Source: a virus
Taxonomy: Duplodnaviria > Caudoviricetes
Direction: 5' to 3' (one strand)
Length of the DNA stretch: 64,000 bases
Virus record (IMG/VR): IMGVR_UViG_3300031813_000003
Span: 128,001 to 192,000 of that record
This document shows positions 31,981-42,372 of this stretch, piece by piece. Positions within the stretch are counted from its first letter, which is position 1; the number at the start of each line of letters is the position of its first letter. Both the position numbers and the translations under genes were made by a program. Below the pieces are notes generated by a model that was not told where the DNA came from, made no database searches, and saw nothing but the letters and a program-made list of their open reading frames with translations.

Positions 31981-32347
31981 GGACTTTATGTTACCATCAA
32001 TTGAAGAATTAAACGAACACATAGATTTTGATGTAAACCATTTGATCATCGTAGCAATTATAGAAGGTGATTTCTTTACCGTAGAGCATATTTGTGCCTA
32101 TGAAAGTAAACCTACTATAGAAGTAGTAGAAGATTTAAAAAGAGAACTCAGCGAAGATGAAGAGTTTGGAATTGACCCTGAAGTTTTAGCCAAATGCACC
32201 TTTGGTGTTTTCAACAAAGATGAATATATCGAATTTATAACTATCTTAGATAAACAAGGAGAAACAAACGAATAAAAGTCTTCCTAAGAGGAACTGAGTA
32301 AATTTTTACTAAATACTAGTAACCTAACTTAGGAGGTTACTAGTATT

Positions 32348-39143: not shown

Positions 39144-39460
39144 GATACACAAAATGTTTAGTGTATCTCGGCTTGCTTATCTGCTGCGGTTGGTAAACGA
39201 ACGGGATTCACTACCAATGAGCTTGAGACTTAGATGGGGAACCGAAGCTAAGAAGTCAATCAGGGAACTGGAGCCAAAGTATCGGCGTAGAAGGTGATGA
39301 TCTGAATGGTGTTAATCACTAACTGACTTTAAATTAGGAACGCACTCATTGGATTATGCAGTAAGGTTCTGAATCACCTTGGGTAATCCCGAAAGATTTA
39401 TATTTCGAATCTATCATTACATAGGATCAACTCACCTAGGGTAGACCCAAAACGAGTTTT
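39144..39460 (+). ncRNA. Unassigned ~300 nt structured RNA candidate
   Basis: Promoter at 39106; no ORF; several complementary segment pairs, some crossing. Confidence 0.6.
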
Positions 39461-39627
39461 TAAATTTATTTTGAATTAAAGTTGACAAGCATAAATAAGT
39501 ATGATAGAATGTTTTAAGTAAGATGAAAACGAATTAAATGTGTGATCTGCTTCATGTAAGCCTCCCATTTATTCTGTTTAAATCCACTACAAAAATATTT
39601 TACTAAATAGTAGTATAAGATATAAAT

Positions 39628-39701
39628 GTGTCGTTAGTTCAATGGTAGAGCAACAGGCTGTAACCCTGTTAATGGTGGTTCGAGTCCATCACGGCGCACC
39701 A
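39628..39701 (+). tRNA. tRNA-Tyr(GTA), short variable arm
   Basis: Loop CTGTAAC; CCA end. Confidence 0.9.
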
Positions 39702-39712
39702 AAATTTAATAT

Positions 39713-39792
39713 GCGGGTAGCACTTAGGCATGAGGTATGTCAGTAGCCTTCCAAGCTATCGTTAAGGTGTTCGATTCACCCTATCCGCTCCA
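39713..39792 (+). tRNA. tRNA-Gly(TCC)
   Basis: Loop CTTCCAA; CCA end. Confidence 0.85.
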
Positions 39793-39862
39793 TAAATTTA
39801 ACAGCAAATTTATTTTGCTAAATACTATCATAAGAAGTATAAATTTGAAAAGAGGAACCGTT

Positions 39863-40015
39863 ATGAAACAATTTGAGTCAAGATCACAGATAGCAGCACA
39901 ATGGCATACAATGCCCATGTCCCTCTGCGCCATGACTCCGGTTCTATCCTTAGATGCAGTAGCACAAAAAAATAATAATGATATTCGCTTTAATAGCGAG
40001 GTAACCCTCACTTAA
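39863..40015 (+). CDS. 50-aa leader-peptide candidate
   Basis: GAGG RBS, upstream CTAAATA, downstream terminator. Confidence 0.6.
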   Translation: MKQFESRSQIAAQWHTMPMSLCAMTPVLSLDAVAQKNNNDIRFNSEVTLT

Positions 40016-40042
40016 AGTATGTCAACAGAAAAGTATTAAGAG

Positions 40043-40080
40043 AATCCTCTTGACTTAACTGTTAAGAGGATTTTTAGTTT
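40043..40080 (+). terminator. Intrinsic terminator just before the main tRNA array
   Basis: AATCCTCTTGAC-TTAACT-GTTAAGAGGATT followed by a T-tract. Confidence 0.8.
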
Positions 40081-40083
40081 TAT

Positions 40084-40158
40084 GCACCGTGAGTCAGCAG
40101 GAGTGGACATTAGCCTTTCAAGCTAAGTAGATGGGATCGATACCCATACGGTGTACCA
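40084..40158 (+). tRNA. tRNA-Glu(TTC)
   Basis: Loop CTTTCAA; CCA end. Confidence 0.85.
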
Positions 40159-40167
40159 AAAGTTAAT

Positions 40168-40245
40168 AGTGAGAGGGGTAAATCGGGTGTGAACTTCTAG
40201 TGTCGTTAGGTCACACTAATTACACAGATTCCGTAAATCCTCCAT
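40168..40245 (+). ncRNA. Possible divergent copy of the AUACUUC small-RNA motif
   Basis: Outer stem GAGG/CCTC, inner GTGT/ACAC, AACTTC then a hairpin. Confidence 0.45.
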
Positions 40246-40254
40246 TAAAATTAT

Positions 40255-40327
40255 ACTCAGATCGTCTAAAGTAGGATGCTCCATGTTGAGGGAGTGACGA
40301 AGTGGTAACGTACTTCTCTGAGTGCCA
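40255..40327 (+). tRNA. Atypical tRNA-Asn(GTT)-like
   Basis: 7-bp acceptor, G73, CCA; irregular anticodon loop and T-loop. Confidence 0.55.
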
Positions 40328-40341
40328 AAATTAAATATTAT

Positions 40342-40416
40342 CAATGTGTAGGCTAAAGGCTAGTCGCTACGTTTGGGGCGTAGATCATGCAGGTTCGATC
40401 CCTGTCACACTGACCA
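40342..40416 (+). tRNA. tRNA-Pro(TGG)
   Basis: Loop TTTGGGG; CCA end. Confidence 0.88.
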
Positions 40417-40421
40417 AATTT

Positions 40422-40495
40422 GGGGCATTAGTTTAACGGGAAAACGTTGGCCTTGCAAGTCGAAGACAGGAGTTCGATTCTCCTATGCTCCACCA
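40422..40495 (+). tRNA. tRNA-Ala(TGC)
   Basis: G3:U70; loop CTTGCAA. Confidence 0.92.
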
Positions 40496-40508
40496 ATTTT
40501 AGTAACAT

Positions 40509-40584
40509 CAGCTAATGTGATAATCTGGTAGTCGCCCTGATCTGGAATCAGGAGGTTTCGGTTCAAATCCGAATTAGCTGACCA
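40509..40584 (+). tRNA. tRNA-Pro(TGG), C33 variant
   Basis: Loop TCTGGAA; C1:G72. Confidence 0.8.
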
Positions 40585-40669
40585 ATTTTGAAGTCTACTC
40601 ACAAGGGTATAACTGAGTGGCGTAAGTCTGACAGAGACACAAAGTGTGCCAGAACTTTGATTAACAAAT

Positions 40670-40744
40670 GGTCTATTGTTGTAGTGGTAGCAATACTAGC
40701 TTGTCAAGCTTGAGGCGAGGGTTCGATTCCCTCATAGATCGCCA
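40670..40744 (+). tRNA. tRNA-Asp(GTC)
   Basis: Loop TTGTCAA; G73. Confidence 0.88.
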
Positions 40745-40909
40745 AACAAAGGAATGAAATGTCTTCATATTACACATGGGCAAAAAGACCTAACAGCACT
40801 ACATTTGAATCAGTTGCTATGTTAGATGATTACTTTGGCCCATACAGATACGGTGTGATGTTTAATGATGGTAAAGTTTATCCAGTAAATGAATGTGAAG
40901 TAAAAACAC

Positions 40910-41060
40910 TATGTGGTTAGATGAACCAATATCATTAGATATACACCATAAAGATGGTAACAATAAAAAACAATGATATTGATAATACTGAATTACTTTG
41001 TCCTAATTGTCATAGAATGACTGATAATTTTGGTTTTAAAGGTAAAACACATAAAAAATT
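40910..41060 (+). pseudogene. HNH endonuclease remnant
   Basis: LDIHHKDGN...ELLCPNCH across a frameshift; no N-terminus. Confidence 0.6.
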
Positions 41061-41134
41061 GGCCGATAAACATAAAATTAATGTGCTAGGTTCTGAGCCT
41101 AGAAAAGAGGGCGAGTTACCTTCATCGGTTGCCA
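41061..41134 (+). tRNA. tRNA-Gln(CTG), non-canonical T-loop
   Basis: Loop TTCTGAG; CCA end. Confidence 0.7.
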
Positions 41135-41138
41135 ATAT

Positions 41139-41212
41139 AGGGGATTAGCATAAAAGTAATGTTACAGCCTTTGAAGCTGAAGAAAGAGGGGCAGTACCTC
41201 TATCCTTTGCCA
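41139..41212 (+). tRNA. tRNA-Gln(TTG), non-canonical T-loop
   Basis: Loop CTTTGAA; CCA end. Confidence 0.75.
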
Positions 41213-41221
41213 ATTAAATGT

Positions 41222-41307
41222 TCCCTAGTGGTGAAATGGCAGCCACAGCACACTGTTAATGTGCCGCAGAAATGCAATTGTTCGTTCAAGTCGGACCTAG
41301 GGAGCCA
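41222..41307 (+). tRNA. tRNA-Asn(GTT), long variable arm
   Basis: Loop CTGTTAA; G73. Confidence 0.85.
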
Positions 41308-41324
41308 AAAATTAAATAGAACAT

Positions 41325-41417
41325 TCCCTCGTACTCTAACTGGCAAGAGGAACGGCTGTTAACCGTTTGTAATCCACCTTGAGTGGTATCCCTGTTCGAC
41401 TCAGGGCGAGGGAGCCA
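41325..41417 (+). tRNA. tRNA-Asn(GTT), long variable arm
   Basis: Loop CTGTTAA; G73. Confidence 0.85.
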
Positions 41418-41418
41418 A

Positions 41419-41494
41419 TTTTGTGTAGTGTAGCGGTAGCACACTTGCCGCATTAAGGTGAGAAGGTCAGGTTCGAATCCTGACATAAGAGTTA
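41419..41494 (+). tRNA. Degenerate tRNA (ATT loop, no CCA)
   Basis: Good D and T arms; loop GCATTAA. Confidence 0.5.
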
Positions 41495-41502
41495 TAAATT
41501 AT

Positions 41503-41580
41503 GGATCGGTGATGTCAACGGATTAACATACTCGCCTTTTAAGCGATGATATCAGGGTTCGAATCCCTGTCGATCCACCA
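41503..41580 (+). tRNA. tRNA-Lys(TTT)
   Basis: Loop CTTTTAA. Confidence 0.88.
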
Positions 41581-41590
41581 AATAGTATAT

Positions 41591-41665
41591 GGGGTTAAAA
41601 CATTAATAGTGATGTACTTGGTTCTTACCCAAGAGAAGAGGGAGCATTACCTTCTAGCCCTACCA
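41591..41665 (+). tRNA. tRNA-Lys(CTT), non-canonical T-loop
   Basis: Loop TTCTTAC. Confidence 0.75.
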
Positions 41666-41677
41666 AACAATTTAAAT

Positions 41678-41763
41678 GGACGCTTCACTCAACGGTAGAG
41701 TACCTGACTTTTAATCAGGAGAGGTTTACCTCATTATGGGTTCGATTCCCCTAGCGTTCACCA
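41678..41763 (+). tRNA. tRNA-Lys(TTT), long variable arm
   Basis: Loop CTTTTAA. Confidence 0.85.
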
Positions 41764-41769
41764 AATTAT

Positions 41770-41843
41770 CAGTTCAAAGTTGCAAAGCGTGATCCACTCA
41801 TTGGGAGTGGAGGTCTTAGGGTAGCGTCTGAGTGAACTGACCA
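41770..41843 (+). tRNA. Atypical tRNA-Pro-like
   Basis: C1:G72, A73, CCA; offset ATTGGGA loop. Confidence 0.5.
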
Positions 41844-41852
41844 AAGTTTTAT

Positions 41853-41925
41853 GGAGTGATAGTATAAGCTGTGCAGCGTCCATGAAGGGACGTTAGAGAG
41901 GGGTAGCGTCCTTTATGCTCCACCA
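41853..41925 (+). tRNA. Atypical tRNA-Phe(GAA)-like
   Basis: Acceptor stem and CCA; irregular loop ATGAAG. Confidence 0.5.
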
Positions 41926-41930
41926 AACAT

Positions 41931-42001
41931 GGCTGATCATCAAGGATGAGCGAATCCTCATAAGGTTTGTTAGGTAGGAGCGTTACCTACATCAGCTACC
42001 A
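41931..42001 (+). tRNA. tRNA-Met/Ile2(CAT)
   Basis: Loop CTCATAA; short D arm. Confidence 0.75.
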
Positions 42002-42372
42002 AAATAAAATGTCAATTAAAATTGACAAGTGACTATAAAGTGTAGTAAGGTAGACAAATCAAAAGGAGAAACAACTATGCATTCTTCTACAGTTGACAAT
42101 CTACATAAGAAAAGTGTTGTCTCTGACATTGGTATCGGAGGGTGGAAGTGTAGATGTTGTGCATTCCCTAAAGAACATATAAAAGAGTATAAACGTTTTG
42201 CAAAACACAGAGCTAAAAGAGAGAACAAAAAGTTTGATAGGATTGCAGAAGGTGATTAATTGTACTTCTGGAGAAAGAATCAGAGCAATTGTATTCATGT
42301 CTCAAATGAATATGAAGGATAACGAAACAAATTTCAATTTGATTATAAATCACTTTAGAGGAATTAACGAAA

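Follow-up and report, generated by a model that had tools for sequence, protein, structure and literature searches.

A probable ribosome-coupled transcription attenuator at the head of a phage tRNA operon, with a leader matched to a broad tRNA pool

In enterobacteria, leader-peptide attenuators other than that of the trp operon include hisL, pheL, the multivalent thrL and ilvGMEDA leaders and pheM of pheST, and a further group of leaders, among them Salmonella mgtL and mgtCBR, those of the antibiotic-responsive ABC-F genes and E. coli pyrBI, responds to the speed of translation or to its coupling with transcription. The latter govern transport, resistance or pyrimidine genes, mgtL acting through Rho, and we know of none with codons matched to a tRNA cargo. 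In the trp attenuator, the position of the ribosome decides between an antiterminator and an intrinsic terminator, and a leader that is not translated terminates (PMC4615214). The mgtCBR leader of Salmonella is the subject of PMC3641672.

The presence of tRNA genes in phages has been attributed mainly to codon compensation and to the replacement of depleted host tRNAs (excerpts of PMC10264068). Depletion of host tRNAs in infection is a documented defence (PMC10264068, PMC11555353, both in excerpt), phage tRNAs are described as evading anticodon nucleases (same excerpts of PMC10264068), and the tRNA-rich region of T5 as countering retron Eco7 and PrrC (same excerpts of PMC11555353). What these excerpts describe for tRNA arrays are strong promoters and nuclease-resistant anticodon loops, and neither “attenuat” nor “leader” occurs in PMC11555353. 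No published case of a leader-peptide attenuator of tRNA genes was found in the open-access literature searched.

The locus described here lies in a window of 64,000 nucleotides, the whole stretch of DNA that was analysed, which is part of a complete 216-kb virus record (34% GC) of a T4-like phage with a T4-type major capsid protein whose best cultured match is 36% identical. A second match to the Gp23 family (G000:C1:209109-210365, E=1e-48) occurs besides the main capsid gene at 32180. The metagenomes sharing the DNA of the window are from lake and freshwater, and no RNA runs are listed among the sequencing runs that hold it. The signals of the genome are sigma70-type TTGACA promoters, Shine-Dalgarno sites and a T4-late-like TAAATA motif that is enriched 5' of genes, also standing ahead of the gene that precedes the capsid gene; a sigma70 region-2 gene was not found in the 216 kb.

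The element, its promoters and the tRNA genes around it are on the plus strand. A leader ORF of 50 codons plus TAA (39863..40015), which uses 18 amino acids and has no Gly or Tyr, follows a Shine-Dalgarno sequence, AGAGGA (39851..39856), that reads GGAGGA in two homologous relatives, L001 and L174. Directly 5' of the leader is a T4-late-type promoter motif, CTAAATACTA (39817..39827), with a putative start near 39830; the motif is invariant in L001 and L174, and TATAAATA stands at the equivalent site in two more distant phages, G001 and pv27. Farther upstream, a sigma70-type (early) promoter (39482..39510; 11/12 consensus match, extended -10), retained in L001 and L174, would drive tRNA-Tyr, tRNA-Gly and the leader. 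The stem of a predicted intrinsic terminator (40043..40081) begins 27 nt past the leader stop, pairing 40043-40054 with 40061-40072 (12 bp, 6-nt loop, -15.9 kcal/mol) and ending in an interrupted U tract (tail TTTTTAGTTTT, 40071-40081), immediately before the tRNA array. This arrangement of ORF, 27-nt gap, terminator and array is the one given by a first-pass annotation made from the letters alone, which had proposed an attenuator that gates the tRNA genes. A 92-aa gene call from 39737 (P0003) was rejected as an artefact, since it starts within tRNA-Gly and has no counterpart in the gene calls of L001 or L174.

The spacer between stop codon and terminator is predicted to be part of an antiterminator (40024..40063), in which 40024-40042 pairs with 40047-40063 (-10.8 kcal/mol, spacer-shuffle P=0.017), starting 9 nt after the stop codon and taking up most of the terminator 5' arm, the loop and the first 3 nt of the 3' arm. 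Among the 19 genome terminators scanned, a competitor of this strength was found only here, the next best reaching -7.7 with a shuffle P of 0.56, and the helix of spacer and arm has -10.5 to -17 kcal/mol in all five loci (the window, L001, L174, G001 and pv27). When the nascent transcript was folded, the antiterminator formed at 0.88-0.99 without a ribosome or with one at codons 5, 25 or 45. With a ribosome at the stop codon of the window leader, the predicted outer helix fell to 0.01 and the energy of the antiterminator to about -6, which would free the bases at which the terminator nucleates, and the inner helix stood at 0.97; only the outer helix is stripped, so the inner one must go by branch migration, and in silico the ribosome-dependent change of fold is cleaner in G001 and pv27 than in the window. 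The terminator (-16) is more stable at equilibrium than the antiterminator (-11), so a switch between them must be kinetic. Another hairpin (39977..40024, -14.1 kcal/mol) closes the leader, contains its stop codon and stops where the antiterminator begins; its core pairs are retained in L001 and L174, with changes in the loop, and it may be a polymerase pause hairpin. The first-pass annotation had built its antiterminator differently, from the GAGG near the leader end and CCTC of the terminator, and this pairing proved wrong: the duplex has -5.8 as opposed to -11.6 for that of the spacer, its pair probability is 0.0, and GAGG (39998-40001) is engaged in the local hairpin with CCTC inside the ORF (40006-40009).

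The locus resembles the trp, his, thr and ilv attenuators in having a short ORF with a Shine-Dalgarno sequence, a predicted intrinsic terminator and a predicted antiterminator that excludes it. It differs from the classical amino-acid attenuators in its codons, which are dispersed over 18 amino acids instead of forming a run for one to three, in its antiterminator, which is located downstream of the stop codon and is predicted to form by default, and in its cargo, which is phage tRNA genes and not biosynthetic enzymes or synthetases. Unlike trp, it lacks a 1:2 protector hairpin by which an untranslated leader would terminate, the antiterminator being predicted at 0.87-0.97 in the absence of a ribosome. 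With the leaders of mgtL, mgtCBR, the ABC-F genes and pyrBI it would share an output set by the ribosome keeping pace with the polymerase, although pyrBI has the opposite sign, a coupled ribosome preventing termination there. T-box riboswitches likewise tie the choice between terminator and antiterminator to the status of tRNA, but they bind uncharged tRNA directly, usually with one specificity, and need no translation; a Rfam scan of the window gave tRNA matches only and no T-box. In contrast to the arrest peptides SecM, TnaC and ErmCL, there is no conserved peptide motif, as the leaders of the window and L174 are about 45% identical and those of G001 and pv27 have no similarity to them. The tRNA arrays described in counter-defence have the same kind of cargo and likely the same purpose (excerpts of PMC11555353 and PMC10264068).

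The tRNA genes of the window stand on both sides of the element. Upstream, where they would be ungated, are tRNA-Tyr(GTA) (39628..39701), which is upstream in L001 and L174 too, and tRNA-Gly(TCC) (39713..39792), missed by ARAGORN and read by hand. The array that would be gated (40084..46171) opens with tRNA-Glu at 40084 and, counting the tRNAs with 7-nt anticodon loops as given by a looser finder and several readings by hand, serves the other 18 amino acids with 27 anticodon classes and has none for Gly or Tyr, which bears out the division of residues and tRNAs reported by the first-pass annotation. Its proximal block, up to 42001, consists of Glu, Pro, Ala, Asp, Gln, Asn, Lys and Met, and its distal block of Phe, Ile, Thr, His, Ser, Met, Val, Leu, Trp, Arg and Cys, the tRNA genes being interspersed with small ORFs. 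ARAGORN at its default threshold found no tRNA outside the cluster in the 216-kb genome, and no plus-strand hairpin-plus-U terminator was found inside the array. The internal promoter noted earlier at 42022 is indeed there (42022..42052) and is of sigma70 type; it could feed the distal block independently of the switch and so supply 10 of the 18 amino-acid classes regardless of it, and a promoter occupies the equivalent place in three other contigs (L170, L173 and L175).

Several other features were observed in and around the array. Elements that resemble tRNAs and have odd anticodon loops are found among the normal tRNAs (window 40255-40327, 41419-41491, 41770-41925, 43373-43469 and 43646-43718), the first of which has a 7-nt GTT loop in L001 and a stem one base shorter in the window. 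A small GIGGxKCxCC protein, for which no function was found, is encoded within the array (42077-42259) as well as in the arrays of G001, L170 and L173. Beyond it, 48340-50220 has more long stretches without coding sequence, together with a body of 224 nt that resembles tRNA-Leu and a tRNA with the anticodon CTA (amber); G001 has a CTA tRNA as well (L089). Ahead of the element, a structured non-coding RNA (39144-39460) with its own promoter (39106) has no Rfam match; its 3' part, which has a TTGGGTAATCC-type motif, is shared with L001, and the G001 array has several motifs of a similar kind.

The leader has 30 different codons, and its sole run, of three Asn, is not retained in L174. Of the 27 anticodon classes downstream, 25 have a cognate codon in it (P=3e-4), including all three Ser isoacceptors and both of those for Thr, Ile, Leu and Gln. 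Exactly Gly and Tyr are absent from none of 44,133 real 50-codon windows (P=1.9e-4 under an iid model). The presence of 18 of the 20 amino acids was by itself rejected as a signal, at least 18 per 50 codons being common by chance (P=0.38). As for the GC-ending codons that had been called unusual for this genome, overall GC3 is not significant (14/45, P=0.24), and what held was an enrichment of nine codons that are rare in the phage (P about 0.01). Since the pattern of composition was noticed post hoc, the relatives weigh more than these chance figures.

In L001, from ENA contigs, the leader homologue (P0002) has 51 aa owing to an in-frame insertion of 3 nt and is still without Gly and Tyr, and from the leader through the spacer to the terminator the identity to the window is about 90%; tRNA-Gly and tRNA-Glu are divergent isoforms with the same anticodons, Gly(TCC) standing at the same place. 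The 48-aa leader of L174 differs from that of the window by 45 nucleotide mismatches and is as a peptide about 45% identical to it, as opposed to 82% for a neighbouring gene of its lineage, and nevertheless keeps an open frame and 18 amino acids, again without exactly Gly and Tyr. In simulations, the chance of keeping this composition was 0.5-0.9% given the open frame, which itself had a chance of 14%. Contigs from a peat run match the L174 lineage and were not counted as independent. The Shine-Dalgarno sequence, the start codon, the frame, the position of the stop relative to the antiterminator and the codon content are kept in both relatives, with indels in multiples of three. Leader and terminator are both conserved in these relatives, one of the checks that the first-pass annotation had named. 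Every pair of the terminator is kept across the three sequences, with two compensatory changes in L174, although the covariation counts, drawn from only three homologues, are not significant against shuffles (65/500). The spacer of L174 has changed in step with its terminator and gives -10.5 kcal/mol with its own arm and -4.0 with that of the window, a cross test that works in one direction only, as the spacer of the window still gives -9.4 with the L174 arm. Because the peptide is about 45% identical and its composition is nonetheless kept, selection appears to act on the composition, the frame and the RNA structure of the leader rather than on its peptide sequence. No leader was found within the 1.9 kb of L171, a more distant relative.

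Among these close relatives, individual tRNA genes have been swapped for unrelated isoforms of the same anticodon with the order retained (window 40084-40158 and 39713-39792 compared with L001 and L174), and L174 has an extra Glu(CTC) directly behind the terminator. On its short contig, tRNA-Tyr is upstream and an odd TCC-bearing element was seen, but no clean tRNA-Gly. Both L001 (about 760-850) and L174 (L174:16-105) have, 5' of tRNA-Tyr, a tRNA-like RNA with a long D stem and a loop of 10-11 nt starting with TCTCC, which is absent from the window and may be a non-decoding or Gly-related mimic.

The same anatomy recurs in leaders that have no sequence similarity to that of the window. G001, a complete 205-kb relative with 71% capsid identity and the same anchor gene, has on its minus strand (L087:15110-14890) the order anchor gene, TATAAATA, 38-codon ORF, a spacer of 27 nt whose pairing with the terminator arm reaches -11.8, and a terminator with the same tail, followed by tRNA-Ala. 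In the cultured Vibrio phage pv27 (L179:3248-3465 = OR413349.1, 58235-58452), TATAAATA, an ORF of 53 codons that uses 19 amino acids and has no annotation beyond hypothetical protein, an antiterminator and a terminator head the tRNA array; in silico, the antiterminator (about -17) dissolves once the ribosome passes codon 47-49. Five other Vibrio phage records (phiKT1024, phiTY18, Va1, TDDLMA and SRILMA) share this stretch at at least 98%. Gly and Tyr are present in both of these leaders, and the tRNAs for them are downstream in each phage, as the model would predict; these are common residues, so their presence is modest support. On the other hand, the G001 leader is without Cys and His and that of pv27 without Cys, though the tRNA genes for these residues do lie downstream, at a distance of several kilobases and with other promoters in between in the case of G001. 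The expectation that the missing residues track the upstream tRNAs is exact in the window and L001 and loose in the more distant phages.

Searched with tblastn, 50,697 phage records gave no match to the leader; it has no PHROGs family, no counterpart locus was found in the viral or metagenome contigs searched, and its matches in a profile search, long proteins joined by 8-11 short stretches each, were set aside as repeat noise. A scan of viral contigs for the terminator pattern found 72 loci, in none of which a tRNA follows the hairpin directly, and the same scan of the metagenome gave no matches; no viral contig came up when YqeY, NAMPT, the anchor gene or the small CxCC gene was used for the search.

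We propose that transcription would enter the leader from the early (39482) or the late-type (39817) promoter, and that the emerging spacer and terminator 5' arm would fold by default as the antiterminator. Were a ribosome to keep up with the polymerase as far as the stop codon, its footprint would lie over the base of the antiterminator (40024 to about 40028), freeing the terminator loop and the start of the 3' arm, so that the more stable terminator could form and transcription stop before tRNA-Glu. If the ribosome lagged at any codon, its tRNA being cleaved, uncharged or scarce, or translation being generally inhibited, the antiterminator would persist and the tRNAs would be transcribed. 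Because the antiterminator is made by the spacer past the stop, the logic would be read-through unless the ribosome reaches the stop in time, and as delay at any codon would spare the antiterminator, the dispersed control codons are accounted for; Gly and Tyr would be omitted from the leader because their tRNAs lie upstream, ungated. The translation of the ORF, the kinetics, the role of the leader-end hairpin in pausing, the use of the promoters and the physiological trigger are the parts of this scheme that we infer, the trigger being likely host anti-phage depletion of tRNA. The promoter at 42022 could feed the distal block early. In T4, sigma70-type promoters are silenced late; if the same happens here, the late-type promoter of the leader would put the whole array under the switch at peak demand.

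From the sequence and the modelled folds, the element is very probably an attenuator of one scope or another, and probably a ribosome-coupled transcription attenuator of the phage tRNA operon that senses a broad tRNA pool. As to this inference, what survives of the first-pass annotation is a leader that samples the amino acids of the downstream tRNAs, which gained from the two relatives, the compensatory changes in the terminator, the conserved antiterminator and the Gly and Tyr codons of the analogues, while its antiterminator pairing was replaced. We lean slightly towards a still broader reading, in which the leader polls nearly every anticodon class and, on cleavage or depletion of any host tRNA, for instance by anti-phage tRNases, would induce a near-complete backup set, its codons tracking the tRNAs behind the terminator and its design recurring with unrelated sequences across phages, cultured Vibrio phages included.

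A narrower attenuator, in which only the last 8-12 codons would be sensed because a pause at the leader-end hairpin resets the race, or in which the leader would be a general sensor of translation or coupling with codon breadth secondary, is unlikely. It agrees with a hairpin kept in the window, L001 and L174, with a 3' third that is the best-conserved part of the leader and with a switch point at the stop codon, but heavy divergence has left the 18-residue set and the absence of Gly and Tyr intact along the entire leader, Trp (codon 14), His (codon 15), Gln and the internal Met of the window leader occur only outside its last third, and there is no strong hairpin at the equivalent end of the G001 leader (-5.4).

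In a very unlikely alternative, the ORF would encode an ordinary small protein and a fixed, leaky terminator behind it would set the stoichiometry of the tRNAs, the match in composition being due to chance. Against this, the peptide is poorly conserved with its composition kept and has no PHROGs family and no credible wider homologue, even though the good Shine-Dalgarno sequence and late-type promoter would suit any small gene, the breadth of amino acids is in itself common and other terminators of the genome are also 21-41 nt past a stop codon. Only this terminator, moreover, has a co-varying antiterminator, and leaders of the same anatomy and no homology head the tRNA arrays of G001 and pv27. 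Least likely of all is a switch thrown by a phage or host protein, or a leader RNA that is a small RNA, with translation of the ORF incidental, for while the region folds well (z=-4.1 with the terminator included), its nucleotides are more conserved than its peptide and the phage encodes many unexplained RNAs, no Rfam family matches the site, and the Shine-Dalgarno sequence, the start codon, the open frame, the codon content and the place of the stop with respect to the antiterminator have all been preserved.

Judged by its sequence in the relatives, the element is real and conserved, and as a leader peptide controlling tRNA genes, the preferred ribosome-coupled attenuator would be a new use of a known attenuation mechanism. 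A leader that turns the array on only when decoding slows would favour replacement of depleted host tRNAs over codon compensation as the reason for which this phage carries tRNAs. If the reading is true, the element would be an inducible counter-defence and, within the open-access literature searched, the first leader-peptide attenuator on tRNA genes, and it may offer a ready-made reporter of damage to the tRNA pool. The analogous element of pv27 and the five near-identical records is in cultured Vibrio phages and can thus be tested in real infections. The codons of the leader would then name the shortages that the phage watches for, and the question of why phages carry tRNAs would become directly testable.
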